Source: Candidatus Methanoperedens sp.
Lineage (GTDB): Archaea; Halobacteriota; Methanosarcinia; Methanosarcinales; Methanoperedenaceae
Assembly: GCA_027460535.1 (NCBI GenBank)
Contig: JAPZAR010000027.1
Coordinates: 270,001-302,000, forward strand
Length of the DNA stretch: 32,000 bases
Reading direction: 5' to 3'
Positions 1-31,715 of the stretch are shown here, one piece after another (positions within the stretch are counted from its first letter, which is position 1; the number at the start of each line of letters is the position of its first letter). The position numbers and the translations under genes are program-made. A model generated the notes under the pieces. That model had not been told where the DNA came from. It worked only from the letters and a program-made list of their open reading frames with translations, and searched no databases.

Positions 1-21
1 CCGATCTTGGCGTAAAGTTCA

Positions 22-254
22 TATGAAAAACTTTAGGAAAGTTTTATCAAATGAAGGGGATGTTTCACATCCCCTATACGTCATAAAGGGGCGTAACCCT
101 TTATGAAAAACTTTAGGAAAGTTTTATCAAAAACCTTTGAAAAAGGTTTATCAAACGACGGGTATGGCACGCCATACCCGGACACGCCCTCCCGAGGCGT
201 GACTCGGGAAGGGGATGTTTCACATCCCCTATACGTCATAAAGGGGCCTTTATG
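22..254. repeat. Array of concatenated short perfect hairpin modules (mosaic palindromic element)
   Basis: Hairpins at 27-45 and 107-125 (aaaacttt/agg/aaagtttt), 56-74 and 211-229 (ggggatg/tttca/catcccc), 82-105, 131-149 (aaaccttt/gaa/aaaggttt), 159-180 (cgggtatggc/ac/gccatacccg), interleaved 183-201 and 190-209, and 237-254. Exact direct repeats 22-51=102-131 and 53-92=208-247. Confidence 0.85.
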
Positions 255-851
255 ATAGATATATATAATAAATTACTTGACAAACTCGGTCCTAAGAACT
301 GGTGGCCGGCTGAAACTCCTTTTGAAGTGGTCTTAGGCGCCATACTTACACAGCAGACAAAGTGGGAGAACGTCGAGAGGGCGATTAAGAATTTAAAGGA
401 TAGAGGGCTTCTCGAAGCTGAATCCCTCTCCAGGATTGAATCAGGAGAACTGGAAGAACTTGTCAGGTGCACGGGATTTTACAGGCAGAAGGCAAGAAGG
501 TTGAAGGATATTTCAGCATTTTTTTCGGAGAATCCCGATATACTCCGAAAACCGAAAGATGAACTCAGGGATGTTCTCCTTGCATTGAACGGCATTGGAG
601 AAGAGACGGCGGACAGTATCATTTTGTATGCTGCAGACAAGCCGAAATTCGTTATCGATGCATACACAAAGAGGTTATGCAGGTGCGTGGGAGTTGAAGG
701 CGATTATATGAAATTGCAATCCATATTTGAAAATTCCATCCCGCAGGAAGTTCCCCTGTACAAGGAATTCCACGCCCTCATAGTCGAGTACGGAAAGCAG
801 TTCTGCGGGAAAAAACGATGTGATGAGTGCATATTTGATGAACCCGTCTAA
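252..851 (+). CDS. Endonuclease III-related HhH-GPD superfamily protein
   Basis: 199 aa ORF with helix-hairpin-helix/GPD-type motif LNGIGEETADSIILYA and a C-terminal Cys cluster (CGKKRCDEC). Resembles Nth-related proteins. Confidence 0.75.
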   Translation: MIDIYNKLLDKLGPKNWWPAETPFEVVLGAILTQQTKWENVERAIKNLKDRGLLEAESLSRIESGELEELVRCTGFYRQKARRLKDISAFFSENPDILRKPKDELRDVLLALNGIGEETADSIILYAADKPKFVIDAYTKRLCRCVGVEGDYMKLQSIFENSIPQEVPLYKEFHALIVEYGKQFCGKKRCDECIFDEPV

Positions 852-4282: not shown

Positions 4283-5366
4283 AGAACTGCTCCGTCCTCG
4301 TATCAAAGATATCAAGGAGTATGTGCCGGGGAGATCCATCGAAGAGATCGCCAAAGAATACAGACTTGACCCGGACAAAATAATAAAACTCGGATCGAAC
4401 GAGAATCCGCTCGGCCCTTCTCCCCTTGCGGTAAAAGCGATCAAGGAAAAGGCAGGGAGGATCCACATATACCCCGATCCAGGTGCACGCGATTTGAGAA
4501 ATGCGATCTCCTCATACACGGGCTATCCTGTGAACAATATCGTAGTCTCAGGTAACGGCATGGACGGCATCCTTGATACTGTGATGAGGCTATTCATGTC
4601 GCAGGAGGCAGAGTCGGTGATACCGATACCCACATTCTCGTATTATGAAATCGCCACGCTCGCGAACGGCGGGAAACCCGTTTTTGTGGAAAGGGAGCCT
4701 GATTTCAGTATCGATACCGAGAAGATCCTCAAAAATGTTAATGGGAATACAAGAATGATCTTTCTGTGCTCGCCAAACAACCCATCGGGTAACAGTGTCA
4801 GCGAGGAAACCGCAAGAAACATCCTGGAATCGGCTGATGCGATTGTGTTCATAGACGAAGCGTATGTGGAATTCTCCGAAACAAGCCTGACCGGACTGGT
4901 CAGGGAATATGACAACATCATAGTCGGGCGAACCTTCTCAAAGGCGTTCGGATTAGCCGGGATGCGTATGGGTTATGCGCTCGCGCCCGAATGGATATGC
5001 AAGGAATACTTGAAGGTCATGACACCTTTCTCGATGGACGTGCTTTCATCCGCTGCCGGTTTCGCGGCTCTCAATGACAAAGAACATCTTCAGAAAAGCA
5101 TACAGACCGTGAGAAAAGGGAGAATGCAGCTTGCCGGGGGCCTTAAATCCCTGTGCAAAGTATATCCTTCGGATGCGAATTTTATCCTGATAGACGTATC
5201 ACCGCGTACGGCCAAAGAGATTTCTGAATTGCTCCTGGAGAAGGGAATAATAGTACGCGACTGCACATCCTTCAGGGGTGCCGGGAACTCGCTTATACGA
5301 ATAACCGTGGGCACTGAACTCCAGAACGAAAAAGTCATAGCCGCTATGGGTTCGATCCTACGATGA
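4272..5366 (+). CDS. hisC: Histidinol-phosphate aminotransferase
   Basis: The ORF-track frame 4215..5366 contains KLGSNENPLGPSP, NPNNPSG-like CSPNNPSGN, DEAYVEF and RTFSKAFGLAGMRMGY. The ATG at 4272 (MRFEELL) overlaps the argD stop, making it the likely true start. Confidence 0.85.
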   Translation: MRFEELLRPRIKDIKEYVPGRSIEEIAKEYRLDPDKIIKLGSNENPLGPSPLAVKAIKEKAGRIHIYPDPGARDLRNAISSYTGYPVNNIVVSGNGMDGILDTVMRLFMSQEAESVIPIPTFSYYEIATLANGGKPVFVEREPDFSIDTEKILKNVNGNTRMIFLCSPNNPSGNSVSEETARNILESADAIVFIDEAYVEFSETSLTGLVREYDNIIVGRTFSKAFGLAGMRMGYALAPEWICKEYLKVMTPFSMDVLSSAAGFAALNDKEHLQKSIQTVRKGRMQLAGGLKSLCKVYPSDANFILIDVSPRTAKEISELLLEKGIIVRDCTSFRGAGNSLIRITVGTELQNEKVIAAMGSILR

Positions 5367-5394
5367 AACACCATGAAGTACAGAGCGTGGGCTC

Positions 5395-5961
5395 ATGATA
5401 ATCGCCTTGACAGGAACACCGGGGACAGGGAAGACCACAGTCTGCGGCTTCATAAGTGAGCATTCAAGGTACAGGAAGCAGTACAGCATTATCAACCTTA
5501 ATAAACTCGTTATGGATGAGAAGCTCTACACCGGGAAGGATGAGAAACGGAATTCGTATGAGGCAGACCTTGAAAAACTGGAGGAGCGGGTTGAACAGAT
5601 AATCAGCCAGATGCCGGGATCAATGGATATCATAATGGAAGGGCATCTCTCGCATTTCCTTCCTGCAGATGCTGTTATTGTGCTGAGGGCTCATCCTGTG
5701 GCTTTGAGGAAACGCCTCGGTAAAAGAAGGGAATATTCTTTTGAAAAAGTAAAGGAGAATGCCAATGCCGAGGCCCTGGATGTTATACTTGTGGAATCTG
5801 TTGAGAGGAACACGAATGTCTTTGAGGTTGATACAACTGACAGGAATCTTCAGTCTGTTGTAAAATCCGTCATTTCAATAATAGAATCTCTAAAAGCCGG
5901 AAATACCCCGCAGGAATTCTTACCCGGGAAGATCAGCTGGATTGACCAGGTTGAACAATAG
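5395..5961 (+). CDS. Fap7/AK6-like nucleoside kinase (putative adenylate kinase)
   Basis: 188 aa with P-loop GTPGTGKTT at the extreme N-terminus. Size and layout are typical of archaeal Fap7 homologues. Confidence 0.65.
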   Translation: MIIALTGTPGTGKTTVCGFISEHSRYRKQYSIINLNKLVMDEKLYTGKDEKRNSYEADLEKLEERVEQIISQMPGSMDIIMEGHLSHFLPADAVIVLRAHPVALRKRLGKRREYSFEKVKENANAEALDVILVESVERNTNVFEVDTTDRNLQSVVKSVISIIESLKAGNTPQEFLPGKISWIDQVEQ

Positions 5962-6492
5962 TCACCAGGTTTCCCAGTGGGCGACTTTATCCATCCCCAT
6001 CCTGGGCGGTGCGACCGGTTCTTCGTCAGGGTATCCCACGGGAATAATGGCTATCGGCTTTGTATTGTAAGGAATCCCGAGAAGGTCGCTTACCGCATAT
6101 TCATCGAATGCACCCACCCAGCACGTGGCAAGCCCTTTTGAGTGTGCGGCAAGGAGAAGGTTCATCACGCCGGCCGTGGCGTCCTGGAGGGCATAGAGTT
6201 CCCCCCGTGACTTGTATATGCGGGACGAACGTTCGATGTTCGCCACCACAATGATAACAACAGGGGCCTGCTCTACGGAGGGCTGGTCAAGGGCGGCTTT
6301 TCTTAACTTTTGTTTTGTGGTCTTGTTCGAAACGATTATGAAATCCCGTGCCTGAAGGTTACCCGCAGATGGTGCCATCTGCGCTGCGTACAGCAATTCC
6401 TCGATTAGCTCTCTTCCAACGGCACTATCTTTAAATCTTCTGACAGACCGCCTCTCCTTGATAGCTTCCATGCACTCCATAAATACACCCAA
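5962..6492 (-). CDS. Nitroreductase family protein
   Basis: N-terminal AIKERRSVRRF and internal PSAGNLQ are hallmark nitroreductase motifs. Confidence 0.8.
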   Translation of the reverse strand: MGVFMECMEAIKERRSVRRFKDSAVGRELIEELLYAAQMAPSAGNLQARDFIIVSNKTTKQKLRKAALDQPSVEQAPVVIIVVANIERSSRIYKSRGELYALQDATAGVMNLLLAAHSKGLATCWVGAFDEYAVSDLLGIPYNTKPIAIIPVGYPDEEPVAPPRMGMDKVAHWETW

Positions 6493-6522
6493 TGAATTAT
6501 TGTTATTAATAGTATTTAAAAT

Positions 6523-7116
6523 TCAGGCAAGTTTGGTCTGCTGGAATTTTGCCTTCAACCCATCAAGGTCGATCAATTCATTAATAATATCAATCAGCAT
6601 CTCTGTTCCCCGACCCAGAATACTGCTCTCATCTCCGCTGATCTCATAAGCAGGGTCATCAGGTGGTATCTTAATGCGTGTTACTGCATTCCTGTGCTCT
6701 TTGAGCCTTGCGTCCTTTGATTCTTTAACAGTTTTTGTCTTTTGCGCCTCTATCCCCAGAAGTGCGAGTTCATATTTGAAGCATGGCCTGTGGAAAAGCG
6801 ATGACAGGATAAAAACAGCAAGTTCAAGCCTCTCAGAGATATCAACATCTTTAAGGTGCTCTTTCACGATACCGTATATATCGCGTTTCATTCCTGCCTT
6901 GAAGGTATATACTTTTGAAGGCGGTATATCGATCTCCTCAAGAAATCCCATATCGTGAAGCGCTCGCAGGTATCCCGTGAGGATCAACCTGTGGTGGTCA
7001 TAGCCGCTTTTCTTTAACTCCCGCGCTATGCTGCTGATGGACATCTGTTTCTGCGAAAGCAGTTCCGTGAGGATATTGTATAATTGGTCTGACATCCACA
7101 CTAGATTTGGTAACAA
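6523..7116 (-). CDS. Hypothetical protein with N-terminal winged-helix-like region
   Basis: 197 aa ORF with an HTH-like segment (MSISSIARELKKSG...LTGYLRAL). There is no competing ORF and no recognised function. Confidence 0.45.
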   Translation of the reverse strand: MLPNLVWMSDQLYNILTELLSQKQMSISSIARELKKSGYDHHRLILTGYLRALHDMGFLEEIDIPPSKVYTFKAGMKRDIYGIVKEHLKDVDISERLELAVFILSSLFHRPCFKYELALLGIEAQKTKTVKESKDARLKEHRNAVTRIKIPPDDPAYEISGDESSILGRGTEMLIDIINELIDLDGLKAKFQQTKLA

Positions 7117-8152: not shown

Positions 8153-8224
8153 GCCCCGATGGGGTAGCGGATATCCTTTGAGATTGCGGATCTTAAGACC
8201 TGGGTTCAAGTCCCAGTCGGGGCG
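8153..8224 (+). tRNA. tRNA-Arg (anticodon GCG)
   Basis: Hand-folded cloverleaf. Acceptor stem gccccga/tcggggc, T arm ctggg-ttcaagt-cccag, anticodon arm tgaga-ttGCGga-tctta, discriminator G. No encoded CCA. Confidence 0.8.
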
Positions 8225-10803: not shown

Positions 10804-11340
10804 TTGAAAAGATACTGCCTCCCGAGCGAATTAAGGACCGAACTCCGGAAACTCCATGGGGAACTTTACCGGGGGGATGGGATCGAAACCGCAAGACGGA
10901 TCATCGGAGATTTGATACACCCCACTAAAATAATCACTGTTGGAGATATCGTGACGTTCAATCTCCTGAACGCGGGGCTGGTTCCGAATATATCCTTCGT
11001 GGATGACAGGACAAAGCGAAGCCGCGCTTCCGATGAAGTAACGCATGGTACGAAGCATCCCCGTTTTCAAACCATTATGGTCGAAAACCCGCCGGGAACG
11101 ATAACGGAAGAACTATTGCAGGAAGTATCAAAAGCTATGGAATCCGAAAATCCCGTAAGAATATTTGTCAAGGGCGAGGAGGATCTGGCTGCTTTACCCG
11201 CGATTGCGATGGCACCCATTTCATCAGTAGTTATATATGGGTTGCCGGAGGAAGGGGCGGTATTGGTCAGAGTAACAGATCAAAAGAAAAAAGAAATCCA
11301 ATCATTACTTGATAGAATGAAATGCAAGGAGGAAAAATAA
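10804..11340 (+). CDS. DUF359 protein (archaeal GTP-dependent dephospho-CoA kinase family)
   Basis: 178 aa with TTG start. Motifs VGDIVT and DDRTKR and its position in the conserved cluster support the call. Confidence 0.6.
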   Translation: MKRYCLPSELRTELRKLHGELYRGDGIETARRIIGDLIHPTKIITVGDIVTFNLLNAGLVPNISFVDDRTKRSRASDEVTHGTKHPRFQTIMVENPPGTITEELLQEVSKAMESENPVRIFVKGEEDLAALPAIAMAPISSVVIYGLPEEGAVLVRVTDQKKKEIQSLLDRMKCKEEK

Positions 11341-11759
11341 TGGAACTTCAAATCATTAAAGACAAGACAAATCCCTTTTTGAACAGAAGAGAGATCTCTT
11401 TAAGAATTAAGAACAAGGGAACACCCTCGAGGATAGAAGTAAAGAATAAGCTTGCCGCATTAGCTAATTCCAAACCCGAATTGATTGTCATAGAGCATCT
11501 TGACACGGAATTCGGGGGACATGAAGTTCTTGGGGCGGCCAGCATTTATCAGAGTGAAGAGAGACTGAAGCAACTGGCACATCAGCATCTCGTTGTAAGA
11601 GGGATGCCCAAAGCTGCTGAGGGTGCCGCAGCAGAGGCCACACCTAAAGAGGCAGCAGCACCTGAAGCCAAGAAGGAAGCGAAGCCAGAAGCAAAGAAGG
11701 AACCTGAAGCCAAAAAGGAAACAAAGGCTGAAGCAAAGAAAGAACCTGAAAAGAAGTGA
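11340..11759 (+). CDS. rps24e: 30S ribosomal protein S24e with Ala/Lys/Glu-rich C-terminal extension
   Basis: MELQIIKDKTNPFLNRREI... is the typical S24e N-terminus. The last ~45 aa are a low-complexity PEAKKE-type tail. Confidence 0.85.
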   Translation: MELQIIKDKTNPFLNRREISLRIKNKGTPSRIEVKNKLAALANSKPELIVIEHLDTEFGGHEVLGAASIYQSEERLKQLAHQHLVVRGMPKAAEGAAAEATPKEAAAPEAKKEAKPEAKKEPEAKKETKAEAKKEPEKK

Positions 11760-26499: not shown

Positions 26500-26716
26500 G
26501 GAAGGCGCCGTCCATTAAAATAAAAAACCGCAGATAAAGGCGCCCAGAGTCGCGCCTCTGGAGGGCTCAAAGGGGGAGCCGTGAATGAAAATGACAAACC
26601 GCAGATGAAGGCGCCCAGAGTCACGCCTCTGGAGGGCGTGTACACGTATGCCCGCAGGCATACGTGGGCGCGGAGTCGAGAACCCGCAGGGTTTCGGCAT
26701 GATGAACGCAGATTTA
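26500..26716. repeat. Mosaic hairpin-module repeats (one partial copy and one complete 119-bp composite element at 26597-26715)
   Basis: aaccgcagat[a/g]aaggcgcccagagtc[g/a]cgcctctggagggc occurs at 26526-26565 and 26597-26636. Hairpins lie at 26544-26561, 26615-26632, 26643-26666 (10-bp stem) and 26680-26694. Both termini are identical to those of 28509-28668. Confidence 0.85.
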
Positions 26717-26794
26717 TAACACTGTCTCCAGAAATTATTAGCTTTCACCAATTTTTTGAAGTAAATGTTATTATTTCATTAGAAGCTCATGCAG

Positions 26795-26890
26795 CAACCC
26801 GCCCGAAGGGCGGCGCCGTATATGAAATAAAGAACCGCAAGATGAACGCCCCGAGTCGCGCCTCGGTGGTGGGGGCGAAAGCCCTCATCC
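26795..26890. repeat. Further hairpin modules of the same family
   Basis: Hairpins at 26799-26813 (ccgccc/gaa/gggcgg), 26851-26866 (ccgag/tcgcgc/ctcgg) and 26873-26884 (gggc/gaaa/gccc). The unit ggcgccgtatatgaaataaagaaccgcaagatgaacgcc parallels 26504-26543. Confidence 0.7.
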
Positions 26891-26994
26891 CTATTTTCAA
26901 GCTTTGATAAACCCAATAATATCAAGCATTATTAACATCATCAAAAAAAGGCGCCGCATATTGTTTCAAGCTATAGCGAAAACGTCTTTGCATT

Positions 26995-27349
26995 TTATCC
27001 GATCTCGTGACGTATTCGGACGGCTCCTGGAGTTATCACTGAAAATGATTGTTTAAGTTCTGTTCCATGCTTCTTTATGGCAGAAACCACTATCTCCGCT
27101 TTCCGGGTAGGAGAAAGCCCTGCCAATCGGATTAGCACAACTCCACTGGTTATGCGCCGCTGACGAAAAACAAGCTCACCAAAGTCTTTATCAGCCGTTA
27201 ACAGCAGCACAGTTTTCTCATTAGCCATTTCAAGCACTTCATCGTCAGAAATCCCTGCATTCGTTGGCAACGTACTGCACATTATGTCCCATCAACCGGA
27301 GACGCTCAACGATTTGTCTGTCTACGTTCTCATCGACCAGAAAATTCAC
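26995..27349 (-). pseudogene. DUF5615 (PIN-like) toxin gene, frameshifted
   Basis: The N-terminal piece runs from GTG 27349 (VNFLVDENVDRQIVERLRLMGHNVQYVA...) and stops at 27245. The C-terminal piece (AGISDDEVLEMA...LTADKDFGELVF...) is in another frame (track ORF 26995..27282). The join requires a 1-nt shift near 27255-27270. Confidence 0.65.
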
Positions 27350-27582
27350 GAGACCGCCTCAGCGACCGGGTACACCACATCAGCGCGTAAAGCTTGTGCA
27401 GCAAATGCAAGAGCCGCTCTTATCGCTTCGCGCGTCAGCCGTGGATGAGCCTCCAATATCTGTTCCACCGTTTCGCCTGCGGAAAGCTTTTCCAGGATCA
27501 GCTCCACAGTGATGCGGGTTCCTGCGATGACAGGTTTGCCCATCATTACTTTGGGGTCGGATACAATCAATTTTTTCTGCAT
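27346..27582 (-). CDS. DUF433 antitoxin-type protein
   Basis: IVSDPKVMMGKPVIAGTRITVELILEKLSAGETVEQIL is the DUF433 signature. The ATG at 27582 is preceded by gaggtg. Its stop overlaps the GTG of the DUF5615 gene. Confidence 0.75.
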   Translation of the reverse strand: MQKKLIVSDPKVMMGKPVIAGTRITVELILEKLSAGETVEQILEAHPRLTREAIRAALAFAAQALRADVVYPVAEAVS

Positions 27583-28127
27583 TTTGCACCTCTTTAGCTG
27601 AATGGTTTGAAGCACCGGGTGAGGGATGATATTATCGTGTTAGATATGGTGAATTCACATTTATATTATTATGGTTCTTTTGCAACTCTGCAACGTCACG
27701 TGCAGGGCGACTTTTAGTTTGCGTCAGATTTGAAAGCGGAAGAGAGTACGACAACGATGTCCCCGCTGTTTTTCGCCTACCACCACTTCATGCTCTCCCT
27801 GAACCTCGTCACCCTCTCATCCTTATCCGGTTTCCTGAAAACATAGAGATGCTCATGTCCGATGAGATAGAAGTCATACTTCTTCCCGAACCACTTCTCC
27901 CTCGTGCTCTTCATCTTCCACTGGAGCTTGATGATATCCTCGCGCAATATGAATCCCGCCTCAAGGAAGCTCATGAGCACCCTCGGCGTAATGGGCACGA
28001 AATGCTTGTTGCGCCGCGTATCGCCAATCAGGATGGCGCAGTGCTTGTTGGGCTTCAGGACGCGCATGCACTCACCGGCGACGAGGCGCATCTCCCGATC
28101 GAACTCGGCGATGCTGTGCACGCTCGA

Positions 28128-28204
28128 AAGCCGAAACTTCGGCTTGCGCAGTGTTGGGGTATGCTCTGCATACCCCTCGTTTGATAAACATTTCCTAAAG
28201 GTTT
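28128..28204. repeat. Three-hairpin module lying in frame inside methyltransferase copy A
   Basis: Hairpins at 28128-28145 (aagccgaa/ac/ttcggctt), 28156-28176 (ggggtatgc/tct/gcatacccc) and 28186-28204 (aaacattt/cct/aaaggttt, one mismatch). The module is colinear with 131-180 on the opposite strand. Confidence 0.8.
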
Positions 28205-28247
28205 TTGAGAGGTCGCCCTCGCGGTCATGGGAATAGGGGATGATGCT

Positions 28248-28348
28248 GGAGTACAGAGAAAGTAGCAAAGAATCAACCACAGAGGACACAGAGTTCACAG
28301 AGAGATGTTGTTTTATCTCTGTGTCCTCCGTGCTCTCTGTGGTTTTTT
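28248..28348. repeat. ~100-bp block with long nested inverted repeat, replacing the motif IV region of copy A
   Basis: The arm aaccacagaggacacagag (28275-28293) faces ctctgtgtcctc[cgtgctct]ctgtggtt (28317-28344). An inner stem is cacagagat/atctctgtg. There is no counterpart in copy B, which has 85 nt encoding ...DLIATHPPYA here. Confidence 0.8.
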
Positions 28349-28508
28349 ATCTCATGCGTCTGATACTCTGAATCGAGCGGCATGTAAACAAAATCCAGCA
28401 TGTTGCGCGCCACCATGACAGCATCAGGATTGATATCCACGCCCACGGGGCGCCAGGAGTTTGCATTCCATCAAAGCTTCCTGAAAAAATGCGGTATTTT
28501 GGAAAAAA

Positions 28509-28668
28509 AACCGCAGATGAAGGCGCCCAGAGTCACGAGCCTCCCGAGTCGCGCCTCGGGAGGGCGCGTCCACGTATGCCTTCAGGGCATACGTGTTGTT
28601 TGGGAGTCGAGAACCGTTAGGTTTCGGTCTGAGAACCCGCAGGGTTTCGGCATGATGAACGCAGATTT
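28509..28668. repeat. 160-bp composite hairpin element inside methyltransferase copy A
   Basis: The left 29 nt (28509-28537) are identical to 26597-26625, and the right 38 nt (28631-28668) are identical to 26678-26715. Internal hairpins lie at 28543-28560, 28571-28595, 28612-28625 and 28633-28647. Confidence 0.85.
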
Positions 28669-29010
28669 GCTGTTACATAGGAGGTAATCCCCCCATGCCG
28701 GCCATCTGGTCCAGCACAAGCTCGCCGGGCTGGGTATAGCGCAGGATGAGGTTGCGCGGGATGTAGGGGGACCAGTTGCCCCTGTAGTTCCCAACGTGCG
28801 TCGCCCAGTCGCAGCGGTCGGAGAAGCTCCAGACCTTGGTGGTTTCTGGGGTGAAGGTGGAGGGGGCGAAAAATCTACCCTTATCGGCATCTTCAAGCTT
28901 AGTGAATGGTAATCGTTATGCAGCAGGAAAAAGAATATACACAATACAGGATAAATAAAAATAATATAAGATCTTATAATAACAAATCGCAAAACCATAA
29001 GGAGTTCATA

Positions 29011-29205
29011 ATGACGGAAGCAGAGATAATTGATGCAATTTATGACAACGGGGTTCTTAAACCTTTAAAAAAGATCGAACCATATGAAGGCAAGATAATA
29101 GAGATACGCATACGGAAAGTGGAAAATATTTTGAGAGAAACTTCTGGAATATTCAAAGGAAAATACAATAAGAAAATGAGATATGAAATGTATGATACTC
29201 ATTGA
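29011..29205 (+). CDS. DUF104-type antitoxin
   Basis: MTEAEIIDAIYDNGVLKPLKKI... matches the archaeal DUF104 pattern (AxYENGVLKPL). It overlaps the downstream PIN gene. Confidence 0.65.
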   Translation: MTEAEIIDAIYDNGVLKPLKKIEPYEGKIIEIRIRKVENILRETSGIFKGKYNKKMRYEMYDTH

Positions 29206-29635
29206 TTCGTCTGTTTTCCTGAAACATTTTCTTGAAGGTGATGCAAAAGCGCATGATTTTTTGAAAAACGCTAAAGACAAAGCGGTTATTTGTGATATTA
29301 TTGTAAATGAAGTTATATATATTTTAATGAAACAATACGTTGTCAATAGATACGATTTAAAACACTACGATGCTATTGATCATCTCAAGAAACCAGATAT
29401 TTTCCAGGAAGCATTTGACAATGCGCTTGTTTTTATAAAATTGATAAAAGCCATTGATTGCGAAGTACTACCCGATGCGAGATACTTTGAAATGATGGAT
29501 ATTATGGGAAAATATAACCTTCTTCCGAATGATGCTTTGATCGCTGCGACATGCAGAGCCTATGGAATATCCAGGGTTGCATCTTTTGACAGCGATTTAA
29601 AAAATTTGGATTTCATAGAGCTTATTGAATTATAA
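29183..29635 (+). CDS. vapC: PIN-domain toxin
   Basis: ILIDSSVF, NEV, LLPNDALIAA and SFDSD supply the four acidic PIN positions. An alternative start is ATG 29192. Confidence 0.8.
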   Translation: MKCMILIDSSVFLKHFLEGDAKAHDFLKNAKDKAVICDIIVNEVIYILMKQYVVNRYDLKHYDAIDHLKKPDIFQEAFDNALVFIKLIKAIDCEVLPDARYFEMMDIMGKYNLLPNDALIAATCRAYGISRVASFDSDLKNLDFIELIEL

Positions 29636-30065
29636 TTAAAAGTCATTGTATGGATTGAGCAGACACTGGAGTCCGGGGGGTGTTAGGGGAAGGTGAGAAT
29701 AACATCTGAAACGCCTACCACCACTTCATGCTCTCCCTGAACCTCGTCACCCTCTCCCCCGCATCCGGCTTCCTGAACACATAGAGGTGCTCATGCCCTA
29801 TCAGATAGAAGTCATATTTTTTCCCGAACCACTTCTCCCTTGTGCTCTTCATCTTCCACTGCAGCTTGATTATATCCTCGCGCAGGATGAGCCCTGCCTC
29901 AAGAAAGCTCATCAGCACCCGCGGCGTGATGGGCACGAAATGCTTGTTGCGCCGCGTATCGCCTATCAGGATGGCGCAGTGCTTATTGGGCTTGAGCACG
30001 CGCATGCATTCAAGCGCGACTTTCCGCATCTCCTCGGCAAACTCAGCGATGTTGTGCACGCTTGA

Positions 30066-30128
30066 AAGCCGAAACTTCGGCTTGCGCAGTGTTGGGGTAT
30101 GCTTTGCATACCCCTCGTTTGATAAAAA
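30066..30128. repeat. Hairpin module inside methyltransferase copy B (two of the three hairpins of copy A)
   Basis: Hairpins at 30066-30083 (aagccgaa/ac/ttcggctt) and 30094-30114 (ggggtatgc/ttt/gcatacccc). The third hairpin is absent and an A5 run (30124-30128) remains. Confidence 0.8.
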
Positions 30129-30397
30129 GGTCGCCCTCGCGATCATGGGAATAGGGGATGATGCTGGCATAGGGAGGGTGGGTGGCGATGAGGTCAACGG
30201 ACTCGCTCTCTATCAGGTCAAGCGAGCGCGCGTCTCCCGTGTATGTCCTGATCTCAGGTACTTTATACTCGGCATCCAGCGGCTTGTAAACAAAATCCAG
30301 CCTGTTGCGCGCCACCATGACAGCATCCGGGTTGATATCCACACCCACGGGGCGCCAGGAGCTTGCATTCCACCAGAGTTGTGCCTGAGCCCATCAT

Positions 30398-30531
30398 CCC
30401 GAGTCGCGCCTCGGGAGGGCGCAGACACGTCAACCGTTGCGCCAGTTGACGTCGCACACACGTATGGCTCCGCCATACGTGGATATCGCTGCGCGATATG
30501 CCCGCAGGGCATACGTGGATTCCCGCTTACG
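30398..30531. repeat. 134-bp hairpin-module insertion splitting the SAM-binding motif of copy B
   Basis: It lies between codon D (30532-30534) and MMGSGTT (30397 downward). Hairpins are at 30398-30415, 30428-30451, 30459-30481, 30483-30499 and 30497-30513. Confidence 0.85.
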
Positions 30532-30926
30532 GTCAAGCACATGCTCGCCGGGCTGTGTATAGCGCAAAATGAGGTTGCGCGGGATGTATGGCGACCAGTT
30601 GCCCCTGTAATTCCCCACGTGCGTGGCCCAGTCGCCGCGGTCGGGGAAGGACCAGACTGTGGTGGTTTCGGGGGTGAAGGTGGAGGGGGCAAAATTTGAG
30701 ATCGTCCACTTCGGCTGGAGTTTTATTTTTGTTTCCCCGATTTCCACTTCCGTGTGGGATTGGAGGAAATGTTTGTAGTCAGTCCTTGTGATCTCGAACA
30801 AGGATCGATATTGATATGATTACTAATATATAAATTAATATGATCTAATTATGTGAATATAATTAAGTTGGAAGTAAGGTGTAAGTAAGTTATAATTAAA
30901 AAATCCGATTTAAGATCATTAATGCA

Positions 30927-31109
30927 TTATTTATTTTCAAAGATTCTCGTATATTTTAATATGGTTAATTTTCCTTCATTAGTAATTTCCAAAGAAAAAA
31001 CATCCCCCTCATTTATTTTATTTTCTTTGCAAACCTGTGTAGGTATTGTAATATCCAGAGAATCTGTACCGTGATGAGTGCGGGCTTTTACAGTGAATTT
31101 TTTACCCAT
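30927..31109 (-). CDS. AbrB/SpoVT-like small DNA-binding protein
   Basis: 60 aa. LDITIPTQVCKENKINEGDVFSLEI fits the swapped-hairpin AbrB pattern. It lies between the endonuclease and methyltransferase genes. Confidence 0.6.
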   Translation of the reverse strand: MGKKFTVKARTHHGTDSLDITIPTQVCKENKINEGDVFSLEITNEGKLTILKYTRIFENK

Positions 31110-31127
31110 GCTTTCTTAGTAATTTCA

Positions 31128-31155
31128 TGTACATAATTTATTTACTGTACATAAT
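31128..31155. promoter_or_regulatory. Two direct copies of tgtacataat upstream of the AbrB-like gene
   Basis: tgtacataat occurs at 31128-31137 and 31146-31155, which is 19-46 nt upstream of the ATG at 31109 on the minus strand. Confidence 0.35.
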
Positions 31156-31164
31156 GCACATCAT

Positions 31165-31668
31165 CTAATTTTCTGGAAGCAAACCTAACAAGAGTATTGG
31201 GACAGGAATTGGCAACAATTTAAAATATCGATATGCAAAGTCGAATTCAGCCATATTATTTACGCTAGCAGGGCGAGTTGGGAAAAACTCTTTTGGTGTT
31301 GTGGGAACAATCAAGACTGCCAAAGAAAGAAGATTTTTTGTCAATCCAAAATGAAATTTATAATAATCACGATAGATGGTTGCACTGTTTCCAAATTGAA
31401 TCTCTACAAAAACATCATTCTTTTGATAGTCTCCTATTAATTTTGGATTTTCATAAAGCACAGGTTGTGGCTGCCAATTATATTTGAAAAATTCAGCATC
31501 AAATGCTTTATTGTATGCTGTTTGATGTTTATACTCGGTGCCGTTTTGCTGAATTTCGAATTCAGGCTTCCATTTTACAGAATCTATGCATGAAAATATT
31601 TCTTGTACTTCATCGACATTACGAAGTAAGCGCGGACTGCAAAAAAAATACTCTTTCTTAAATTTCAT
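31165..31668 (-). CDS. BglII/BstYI-like type II restriction endonuclease
   Basis: 167 aa. IGDYQKNDVFVEIQFGN parallels the BglII catalytic segment (D...VEVQFSN) as recalled, and the C-terminal VPILLLGL parallels VPIRLVGL. The ORF is uninterrupted. Confidence 0.55.
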   Translation of the reverse strand: MKFKKEYFFCSPRLLRNVDEVQEIFSCIDSVKWKPEFEIQQNGTEYKHQTAYNKAFDAEFFKYNWQPQPVLYENPKLIGDYQKNDVFVEIQFGNSATIYRDYYKFHFGLTKNLLSLAVLIVPTTPKEFFPTRPASVNNMAEFDFAYRYFKLLPIPVPILLLGLLPEN

Positions 31669-31715
31669 GATTCAGTTATATATTTAAAAACGGATCAATC
31701 AAAAATATCAATTTC

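Follow-up and report, generated by a model that had tools for sequence, protein, structure and literature searches.

A 77-nt palindromic segment of Candidatus Methanoperedens, on the minus strand of a 32,000-nt stretch of DNA (hereafter, the window) at positions 28128-28204, raises the question of how a hairpin-rich sequence of intergenic type came to lie within an open reading frame (ORF) of a DNA methyltransferase sequence, and whether it is read there as part of a working enzyme. An earlier note on this DNA had proposed that an intergenic-type palindromic element was inserted in the coding sequence and read through, as described for Rickettsia. We consider it highly probable that the segment belongs to an interspersed, non-coding palindromic repeat specific to the Candidatus Methanoperedens lineage, of which it is a single copy inserted in a methyltransferase paralogue that was already dead. 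The repeat would be a fixed 77-nt composite of three hairpin modules and conserved linkers, and would be part of a larger module set that builds nested intergenic mosaics.

Two copies of the methyltransferase sequence, A and B, lie in the window, and the complete unit is in copy A. Read from 28204 down to 28128, it is AAACCTTTAGGAAATGTTT-ATCAAACGA-GGGGTATGCAGAGCATACCCC-AACACTGCGC-AAGCCGAAGTTTCGGCTT, i.e. three hairpins (hp1 to hp3) joined by two linkers (Table 1), and when folded as DNA it forms three independent hairpins of 18-21 nt each (z = -5.6). The part from hp1 to hp2 (28156-28204) is colinear with an intergenic array at 131-179, with an ungapped identity of 36/49, and the third module differs between the two. 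The earlier note had quoted both strings, and they were found exactly at these positions; the perfect third hairpin is also where it had been placed, and the frame is indeed open across the segment (ORF 27777-28298, minus strand, reading ...GDLSKTFRKCLSNEGYAEHTPTLRKPKFRLSSVHSIAEF...). The linker identity, given there as 21/22, stands as a near-identity, the exact count being 20/21 across GTTTATCAAACGA-N-GGGTATG, a trivial difference. Its description of copy B was equally accurate: hp2 and hp3 are present, 20 nt of hp1 are gone, and the frame changes there.

The hairpin pattern is far above chance expectation. Indeed, the pattern of linker plus hp2 occurs four times in the window and never in 100 shuffles, and perfect hairpins with a stem of at least 8 bp number 20, versus 2.6 in shuffles. 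Sixteen of these 20 fall in the arrays at 1-255, 26643 and 28128-30481, all in non-coding or pseudogene DNA, and none in intact window genes.

The unit is also widely dispersed. A pattern scan on one genome per species found at least 120 loci, the great majority in metagenome-assembled genomes of Candidatus Methanoperedens, and blastn of the unit against 8-kb slices gave about 57 near-full-length units, with sharp ends and 82-98% identity. In an alignment of 50 units the mean column identity was 90%, stems and linkers being almost invariant and loops freely variable. Stem cells were paired in 98.8% of cases, and five pairs showed two-sided changes (A-T/C-G in hp1 and G-C/A-T in hp3); this level of pairing was reached by none of 500 shuffles, and slid registers were also far below it. 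As for position, 55/57 units lie outside long ORFs, and the two found in an open frame flanked at either end by genuine coding sequence are the remnant of copy A and a U32 peptidase gene (L120).

Mostly, the unit is nested in other repeated modules, e.g. AACCGCAGATGAACGC-unit-ATGAACGCAGATTT and GGCATACGT-unit-ACGTGGATAC. The same organization is seen in the window: the stretch 131-207 is itself a dispersed composite, present at 97% identity in L076 and L079, 26596-26715 is the complete composite AAACCGCAGATGAA...ATGAACGCAGATTT, colinear with the in-frame insert of another U32 gene (L122), and the linkers ATCAAACGA, (A/G)ACAC and TATAC recur in the arrays at 1-255, 26504-26885, 28471-28696 and 30392-30530. 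An Rfam gathering scan of the whole window returned one tRNA only, and an Rfam E-value scan of 28100-28720 gave sub-threshold matches of generic microRNA hairpins to the ccacagag block (Table 1) only; judged by Rfam, the unit matches no known RNA family. An IMG/VR viral contig with an exact 21-mer match was set aside as a chance match, the hairpins being absent from it. In the literature on palindromic, hairpin, miniature inverted-repeat transposable element (MITE) or repetitive extragenic palindrome (REP) repeats in Methanoperedens, we found no description of these repeats.

The homologues of the methyltransferase lack the segment. The protein was rebuilt and then searched, with thousands of homologues found; the intact ones are about 299 aa long and occur in Methanoperedens, Hadarchaeales, Thermoplasmatota and others. 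All of the aligned intact homologues (14/14) read ...YSH.REGD/LSSVH.IAEF... without the 27-aa segment, and no unit-derived peptide was found in the 120 best intact homologues. At L052, the syntenic locus of the sister genome Methanoperedens STD1_19, both methyltransferase copies present an empty site, GAC CT(G/C) TCA AGC GTG. The filled site reads ...CTCTCAA-unit-TCGAGCGTG in copy A and ...-unit-TCAAGCGTG in copy B, the target being the TCAA that spans Leu-Ser codons where EGD meets LSSVH. Since the segment is missing from the homologues and from both L052 copies, it is an insertion of 77 nt plus the duplicated TCAA, for a total of 81 nt (27 codons). The homologue alignment, the empty L052 sites and the dispersal of the unit thus bear out the first half of the earlier proposal, that of an intergenic-type palindromic element inserted in a coding sequence.

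With low confidence, the units could have spread by Y1-type transposition of single-stranded DNA hairpins at TCAA, or by homology- or microhomology-driven copying between arrays. A flank-versus-flank search for empty sites left about eight clean pairs usable, most flanks being themselves repeats. TCAA is duplicated at insertions in unique sequence (the methyltransferase, a PIN gene in L005, and L103) and also at a linker, where TATCAA/ACGA became TATCAA-unit-TCAAACGA.

Spread and homogeneity mainly by recombination between arrays, with no dedicated transposase, are possible, if on the doubtful side. Here gene conversion via shared flanking modules would act together with microhomology-mediated template switching at hairpin-stalled forks. 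Coherently, the units are usually nested among repeated modules, which provide flanking homology, the duplications at junctions measure 2-8 nt, diverged U32 orthologues carry units with 100% identity to each other and to dispersed copies in L054 and L022, and gene conversion is evident between the two methyltransferase copies. However, the insertions in unique sequence (methyltransferase, PIN, and L116 versus L105) have only 4-9 nt of flanking homology, and the recurrence of TCAA suggests sequence-specific cleavage.

Of much the same, if slightly lower, probability is the mobilization of the units as single-stranded DNA hairpins, next to TCAA, by an insertion sequence (IS) transposase of the IS200/IS605 type (HUH, Y1) or by an enzyme resembling the REP-associated tyrosine transposases (RAYTs). 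The modules are short stable hairpins with no terminal inverted repeats, TCAA stands at both junctions in at least five insertions, and truncated C-terminal fragments of IS200-type Y1 transposases (PF01797) were found near units in four slices (L066, L100, L016 and L099). The L066 match came as a lead from an approximate IS200 TnpA query and was independently borne out by Pfam; it stands 75 nt away from a unit, and CCCTGTACCTTAAGTACGGGG, immediately downstream of it, is similar to the CCCCGTATTTAAATACGGGG palindrome, which is in frame in several genes (see below). Nevertheless, all the TnpA matches are truncated, with no intact enzyme in the slices examined, the junctions are not uniform, some having a different duplication or a replacement of 2 nt, the GTAG/CGTC tags of RAYT-bound REPs are absent, and the Y1 association is an uncontrolled one that concerns 4 of about 95 loci.

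We then considered why both methyltransferase copies carry the unit. The window copies were mapped by blastn on the intact L052 gene and aligned with the two L052 copies (4-way alignment). In the central block, A clusters with copy 2 of L052 and B with copy 1, which indicates orthology; the L052 orthologue of B is an intact 315-aa ORF and that of A is degraded. In the flanking blocks, the identity between A and B (85/96, 73/80, 83/100 and 93/100) is above that of either copy with its own orthologue. Furthermore, A and B share a 5-nt deletion about 240 nt upstream of the unit, and neither L052 copy has it. The ccacagag block, on the other hand, is common to copy A, to L052 copy 2, which has no unit, and to a third strain (L127), where the unit occupies the same methyltransferase site but the 5-nt deletion is missing. 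As L052 copy 2 has the block but no unit, the lineage of copy A was broken before the unit arrived.

The unit and the 5-nt deletion were most likely shared through gene conversion, from pseudogene A to a formerly intact B. Paralogue A, a type II N6/N4 DNA methyltransferase, was already a pseudogene when the unit integrated at its TCAA, duplicating it and leaving the 3' ORF open (81 nt, stop-free). Copy B would then have gained the unit and the frameshifting deletion from A by gene conversion, and would later have lost 20 nt of hp1. Both copies would also have taken up further, different arrays in the region of motif I, as neutral DNA of this genome does.

Improbable, by comparison, is that A and B each gained the unit in a separate site-specific insertion, with TCAAGCGTG, similar to the module linker TCAAACGAG, as the common target. 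The target does match the canonical linker at 7/9 positions and TCAA is a recurrent target; moreover, the U32 hot-spot described below is one site repeatedly occupied across species, and the U32 unit is 78/78 identical between orthologues with a synonymous divergence (dS) of 0.5-1.1. Such an insertion, however, has to face the 5-nt deletion shared by A and B, the increased identity of A and B in both flanks of the unit, and the variable loop of hp2, which differs by one base only, AGA in A versus AAA in B.

The second half of the earlier proposal, a read-through inside the methyltransferase gene, found no support at this locus. From their sequence, both copies are pseudogenes. Taking the intact L052 orthologue as reference, copy A retains nucleotides 157-330, 347-473 and 557-948 only: the first 156 nt (the N-terminal 52 codons) are gone, and the 5-nt deletion is present. 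Motif I is replaced by an array that reads, on the plus strand, AAACCGCAGATGAAGGCGCCCAGAGTCACG...ATGATGAACGCAGATTT, the same composite as 26596-26715, and whose plus-strand translation matches U32 insert peptides (tblastn, E down to 7.6e-14); the hairpin block has taken the place of motif IV. What is left is a 173-aa ORF (27777-28298, minus strand), which starts within the hairpin block and whose Pfam match covers only positions 16-110 of the 221-position profile. In copy B, three lesions break the frame: the motif I array, the translation of which matches the U32 insert of P0132/P0167; a 5-nt deletion identical to that of copy A; and the unit remnant, which without 20 nt of hp1 leaves a net +61 nt at the site and a frameshift. 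A functional PF01555 N6/N4 methyltransferase should combine motif I (D-x-M-x-GSGTT) and motif IV (HPPY) in one ORF; both are found in the intact homologues, which are about 299 aa long, and neither A nor B shows this combination.

It is therefore very improbable that the unit is translated within a working methyltransferase, its insertion in a loop of the active enzyme being neutral or adaptive, in the manner of Rickettsia palindromic elements (RPEs). The idea draws on an ORF that is open and in frame through the unit (a product would contain LSKTFRKCLSNEGYAEHTPTLRKPK), on the good conservation of the C-terminal 116 codons (83-87% nucleotide identity to L052) and on the tolerance of the unit, in frame, within intact genes elsewhere. 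Against it, copy A is devoid of both motif I and motif IV (HPPY), copy B is three times frameshifted, the disruption of the gene is older than the unit, the 120 best full-length homologues have no unit, and the database proteins with the unit at this site are all truncated calls of 143, 162 and 170 aa, the last being the window's own ORF. The remnant ORF is open because 81 nt make 27 codons and the unit is stop-free in that orientation and frame, as it is in 3-4 of the six frames. An open remnant ORF is thus the default outcome without selection, and does not point to a working fusion protein. That the segment is an ancestral part of the methyltransferase family, palindromic by chance, can practically be dismissed, having nothing in its favour but the open frame and being contradicted by its absence from the intact homologues and both L052 orthologues and by dozens of unrelated intergenic copies at 82-98% identity.

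In-frame tolerance of palindromic repeats in this archaeal lineage is nonetheless real, although copy A itself is no example of it. The earlier note had suggested looking for in-frame copies of the module in other ORFs, and these were found in a U32 peptidase and a PIN protein, with sister palindromes in an aspartokinase and other genes. A peptide search with the four open frames of the unit, on a set of 5.8 billion proteins, gave 105 candidates and 42 matches; it is no census, having missed U32 proteins with an exact 26-aa match. In the scan for hairpins in ORFs only real entries were read, N-run matches being set aside, and a "484-aa ORF" of L105 with hp1 and hp2 looks like an antisense artefact and was discarded.

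The clearest case is L120, where the unit (6218-6294) is inside an intact 834-aa U32 peptidase/DUF3656 gene (4560-7064). We aligned 118 Methanoperedens U32 orthologues (766-878 aa, all intact; P0121-P0240, L121-L124) and found an insertion hot-spot in one loop. Some orthologues read GGETFGKTLEKEDY with no insert, many read ...NKPQMNADERRF..., encoded by AAACCGCAGATGAACGCAGATGAACGCAGATTT, and about 20/118 carry differing in-frame arrays between KPQMNA and DERRF, the insert ranging from 0 to 84 extra aa by species. In three species, including L120/L121, the 77-nt unit is read as KLYESFIKRGVCEAYPNTSQTEVSVY; other arrays (e.g. PRVTPLEGVSTHGAAMRVRGVENPQGFGN) are at DNA level colinear with the window composite 26596-26715, and the insert arrays match the window arrays by tblastn. 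Two more module-derived insert sites are present in the same protein (YSPQRTQRSQS and NPVFKYGD), and peptides spanning in-frame inserts would include KLYESFIKRGVCEAYPNTSQTEVSVYER and INTPYLNTGNILENVNAELDLR.

Between L120 and L121, the ratio of nonsynonymous to synonymous divergence (dN/dS) of the U32 gene is 0.13 upstream and 0.21 downstream of the unit; these low values on both sides indicate that the frame is read across the insert. In the AlphaFold2 model of the protein (mean predicted local distance difference test score, pLDDT, 75.9), the module segments are low-confidence loops (547-578, 625-637 and 685-688) that sit between confident strands and helices. The unit is 78/78 identical between L120 and L121, whereas flanking third codon positions are 60-74% identical (dS 0.5-1.1), and it is also identical to dispersed copies in L054 and L022. 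This fits a recent (parallel) gain, a continuing homogenization (concerted evolution), or a strong constraint on the repeat.

The PIN protein P0253 (L005) has a 27-aa in-frame unit with TCAA flanks. Furthermore, a perfect palindrome of 20-26 nt, (AAA)CCCCGTATTTAAATACGGGG(TTT), contributes an in-frame TPYLNTG or NPVFKYGD to an aspartokinase, a Zn-ribbon ORF, a radical-SAM-like ORF, a TauE-like membrane protein and the U32 peptidase, and is an insertion versus PDB 3c1m and versus most U32 orthologues. Its 26-nt form, AAACCCCGTATTTAAATACGGGGTTT, is read as TPYLNTG in the aspartokinase, a 5-residue insertion versus 3c1m, and is in frame in three further genes. The unit and its sister modules are thus shown to be tolerated in frame as loop insertions in intact genes that are constrained by purifying selection. 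The RPE-like behaviour that the earlier note had suggested for an archaeon fails at the methyltransferase locus, where the hosts are pseudogenes, and stands at the level of the family (U32, PIN and aspartokinase).

Four points weigh against the reading of 28128-28204 as a non-coding interspersed repeat in a dead gene. First, the remnant ORF of copy A is annotated at NCBI, as a 170-aa "DNA methyltransferase" (P0264, identical sequence), and sequence alone allows for its translation into a truncated product. Second, the duplication of TCAA is not universal, other filled/empty pairs having a duplication of ACGT or TCGCA or a 2-nt replacement (AG, TA); with such heterogeneous junctions no single transposition rule fits all cases, and one fixed target-duplication rule, also considered, appears unlikely. 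Third, the count of about 57 copies covers 8-kb slices picked for containing the pattern, and is not a whole-genome count. Fourth, the gene conversion between A and B is derived from identity patterns in short blocks.

Taken alone, the methyltransferase locus is of modest interest, the phenomenon at family level being more interesting. We tentatively propose, as a possible wider reading, that Methanoperedens hosts an undescribed modular palindromic system, an archaeal counterpart of the RPEs, whose units would be near-identical across species with saturated synonymous sites, nested at preferred sites, and recurrently fixed, without loss of frame, in loops at the surface of housekeeping proteins (three U32 sites, with species-specific inserts up to 84 aa; aspartokinase, PIN and others). 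An IS200/IS605-type enzyme specific for TCAA may mobilize such a system, which may also be a source of variation in protein loops and start codons. Hairpin modules abundant and conserved in the lineage fragment assemblies, create spurious genes, and appear in frame in conserved enzymes; in the present case, the public 170-aa "DNA methyltransferase" is the tail of a dead, repeat-interrupted gene. The question raised in Rickettsia, whether selfish palindromes can enter proteins without killing them and add loops, becomes testable in methane-oxidising archaea, for which many metagenomes, metaproteomes and enrichment cultures exist.

Some observations concern the relation between arrays and genes. 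The last module of the array at 1-255 (236-255) supplies the ATG of ORF 252-851, an HhH-GPD glycosylase. Modules of the form TCATAAAG...CTTTATGA end exactly on a downstream ATG in the window (236-255) and in L111 (7205-7228), L074 (1896-1921; the gene downstream encodes ribosomal protein L19e), L104 and L067. Hairpin modules may supply or overlap translation starts. Several short ORFs run through arrays, such as 28400-28687 (plus strand, 95 aa) and 26581-26907 (plus strand, 108 aa), e.g. KPQMKAPRVTSLPSRASGGRVHVCLQGIRVVWESRTVRFRSENPQGFGMM, and array ORFs are called as genes in public annotation (L126); these are translations of the repeats and likely spurious.

All the hairpin arrays of the window, except that at 1-255, are in a defence/toxin-antitoxin island (26900-31700) with DUF5615 and DUF433 genes, methylase pseudogene A, AF2212-like and PIN genes, methylase pseudogene B, a MazE-like gene and a BglII-like nuclease. 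The small MazE/AbrB-like ORF and the nuclease adjoin pseudogene B, and no working cognate methylase appears to accompany the nuclease at the locus. Elsewhere in the window, direct repeats at 11636-11755, at the 3' end of ORF 11322-11759, encode a tract rich in Lys, Glu, Ala and Pro (ACCTGAAGCCAAGAAGGAAGC...).

Table 1. Coordinates of the repeat unit, the methyltransferase copies and other features (window positions unless a slice is named).
Feature	Position	Strand	Description or basis
Unit, copy A	28128..28204	minus	77 nt, three hairpins; sequence
hp1	28186-28204	minus	AAACCTTT/AGG/AAATGTTT; 8-bp stem, one C.T mismatch
Linker hp1-hp2	28177-28185	minus	ATCAAACGA
hp2	28156-28176	minus	GGGGTATGC/AGA/GCATACCCC; 9-bp perfect stem, 3-nt loop
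Linker hp2-hp3	28146-28155	minus	AACACTGCGC
hp3	28128-28145	minus	AAGCCGAAGTTTCGGCTT = AAGCCGAA/GT/TTCGGCTT; 8-bp perfect stem
Left copy of duplicated target, TCAA	28205..28208	minus	L052 empty versus filled site
Right copy of duplicated target	28124..28127	minus	TCGA in A (mutated); TCAA in B at 30062-30065
DNA methyltransferase pseudogene A, PF01555 family	27777..28870	minus	blastn map, 4-way alignment, Pfam
Hairpin block ccacagagg...cctctgtgg, copy A	28250..28348	minus	99 nt; replaces reference nt 474-556 including THPPYA motif IV
Composite hairpin array, copy A	28471..28696	plus	226 nt, in place of GSGTT motif I; map and sequence
DNA methyltransferase pseudogene B	29715..30800	minus	Full length in outline, TTG start near 30800; three lesions
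Unit remnant, copy B	30066..30127	minus	62 nt; hp2 30094-30114, hp3 30066-30083; alignment and sequence
Hairpin array, copy B	30392..30530	minus	139 nt, four or five modules, between VLD and QMMGSGTT (motif I), replaces 8 nt; map and sequence
Intergenic mosaic array	1..255	plus	Eight hairpin modules; sequence, hairpin scan
Intergenic arrays, same module families	26504..26885	plus	Sequence
BglII-family restriction endonuclease	31165-31668	minus	Intact, 167 aa; Pfam E 4e-10
tRNA gene	8153-8224	plus	Rfam RF00005, 55 bits
Y1_Tnp fragments	L066 1746-1964 (E 1.5e-13); L100 5992-6171; L016 4430-4519; L099 3517-3609		PF01797
Palindrome (AAA)CCCCGTATTTAAATACGGGG(TTT)	L019 752-771; L022 1996-2015, 3000-3019; L031 2947-2966; L066 1134-1159; L120 6608-6627		

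Finally, we compared the unit with known repeat classes. RPEs are described as short non-autonomous palindromic repeats, both intergenic and inside ORFs, where they are in frame, the host ORF is preserved and the added peptide is located in loops (Ogata et al. 2000, via PMC10969869). By placement, the in-frame loop inserts of the Methanoperedens U32 peptidase, PIN protein and aspartokinase, where the host ORF is kept, can be likened to them. The differences are several: the host is an archaeon and not Rickettsia; RPEs are single long palindromes of about 100-150 bp, whereas the unit has 77 nt in three separate hairpins of 18-21 nt; the Methanoperedens modules form nested mosaic arrays; and copy A lies in a pseudogene, while the host function of RPEs is preserved.

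REPs and bacterial interspersed mosaic elements (BIMEs) are imperfect palindromes of 20-40 nt, present in high copy number, in mosaic clusters with extra-palindromic linkers, and mostly extragenic. The unit family resembles them in consisting of short palindromes in many copies, predominantly extragenic, with compensatory stem changes, and its arrays are mosaics with conserved linkers, the composites of which recur in other genomes. Unlike REPs and BIMEs, the Methanoperedens modules are of many sequence types and their arrays nest within each other; when the modules were inspected, no GTAG/CGTC tag was seen at the hairpin bases, and the fetched slices contain no RAYT, only truncated Y1_Tnp fragments. 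In addition, REPs are seldom found within genes (PMC12306157), whereas the Methanoperedens arrays are repeatedly in frame within genes.

Among small mobile sequences, archaeal MITEs are listed in PMC10969869. The unit does not have the terminal inverted repeats of a classical MITE, its ends (AAACCTTT... and ...TTCGGCTT) not being inverted copies. The palindrome-associated transposable elements (PATEs) of Haloquadratum are miniature elements of archaea derived from IS200/IS605, with hairpin-bearing ends and a tetranucleotide-associated insertion site. The unit family shares with them the archaeal host, hairpin ends without terminal inverted repeats, a tetranucleotide-associated site and Y1 remnants in the same genomes; it differs in that no parent IS with matching ends was found in the fetched slices, and in having TCAA on both sides, which looks like a duplication, with heterogeneous junction rules. 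The enterobacterial repetitive intergenic consensus (ERIC), or intergenic repeat unit (IRU), also occurs within genes, as small mobile sequences carrying ORFs (Delihas 2007, via PMC10969869). Like ERIC, the unit is a small repeat with open frames, occasionally inside genes; ERIC, in contrast, is a single imperfect bacterial palindrome of 127 bp, with neither modular arrays nor multiply filled insertion hot-spots. Overall, the unit belongs to a REP/BIME/MITE-like class, with a behaviour at family level, apparently undescribed in archaea, that resembles that of the RPEs.

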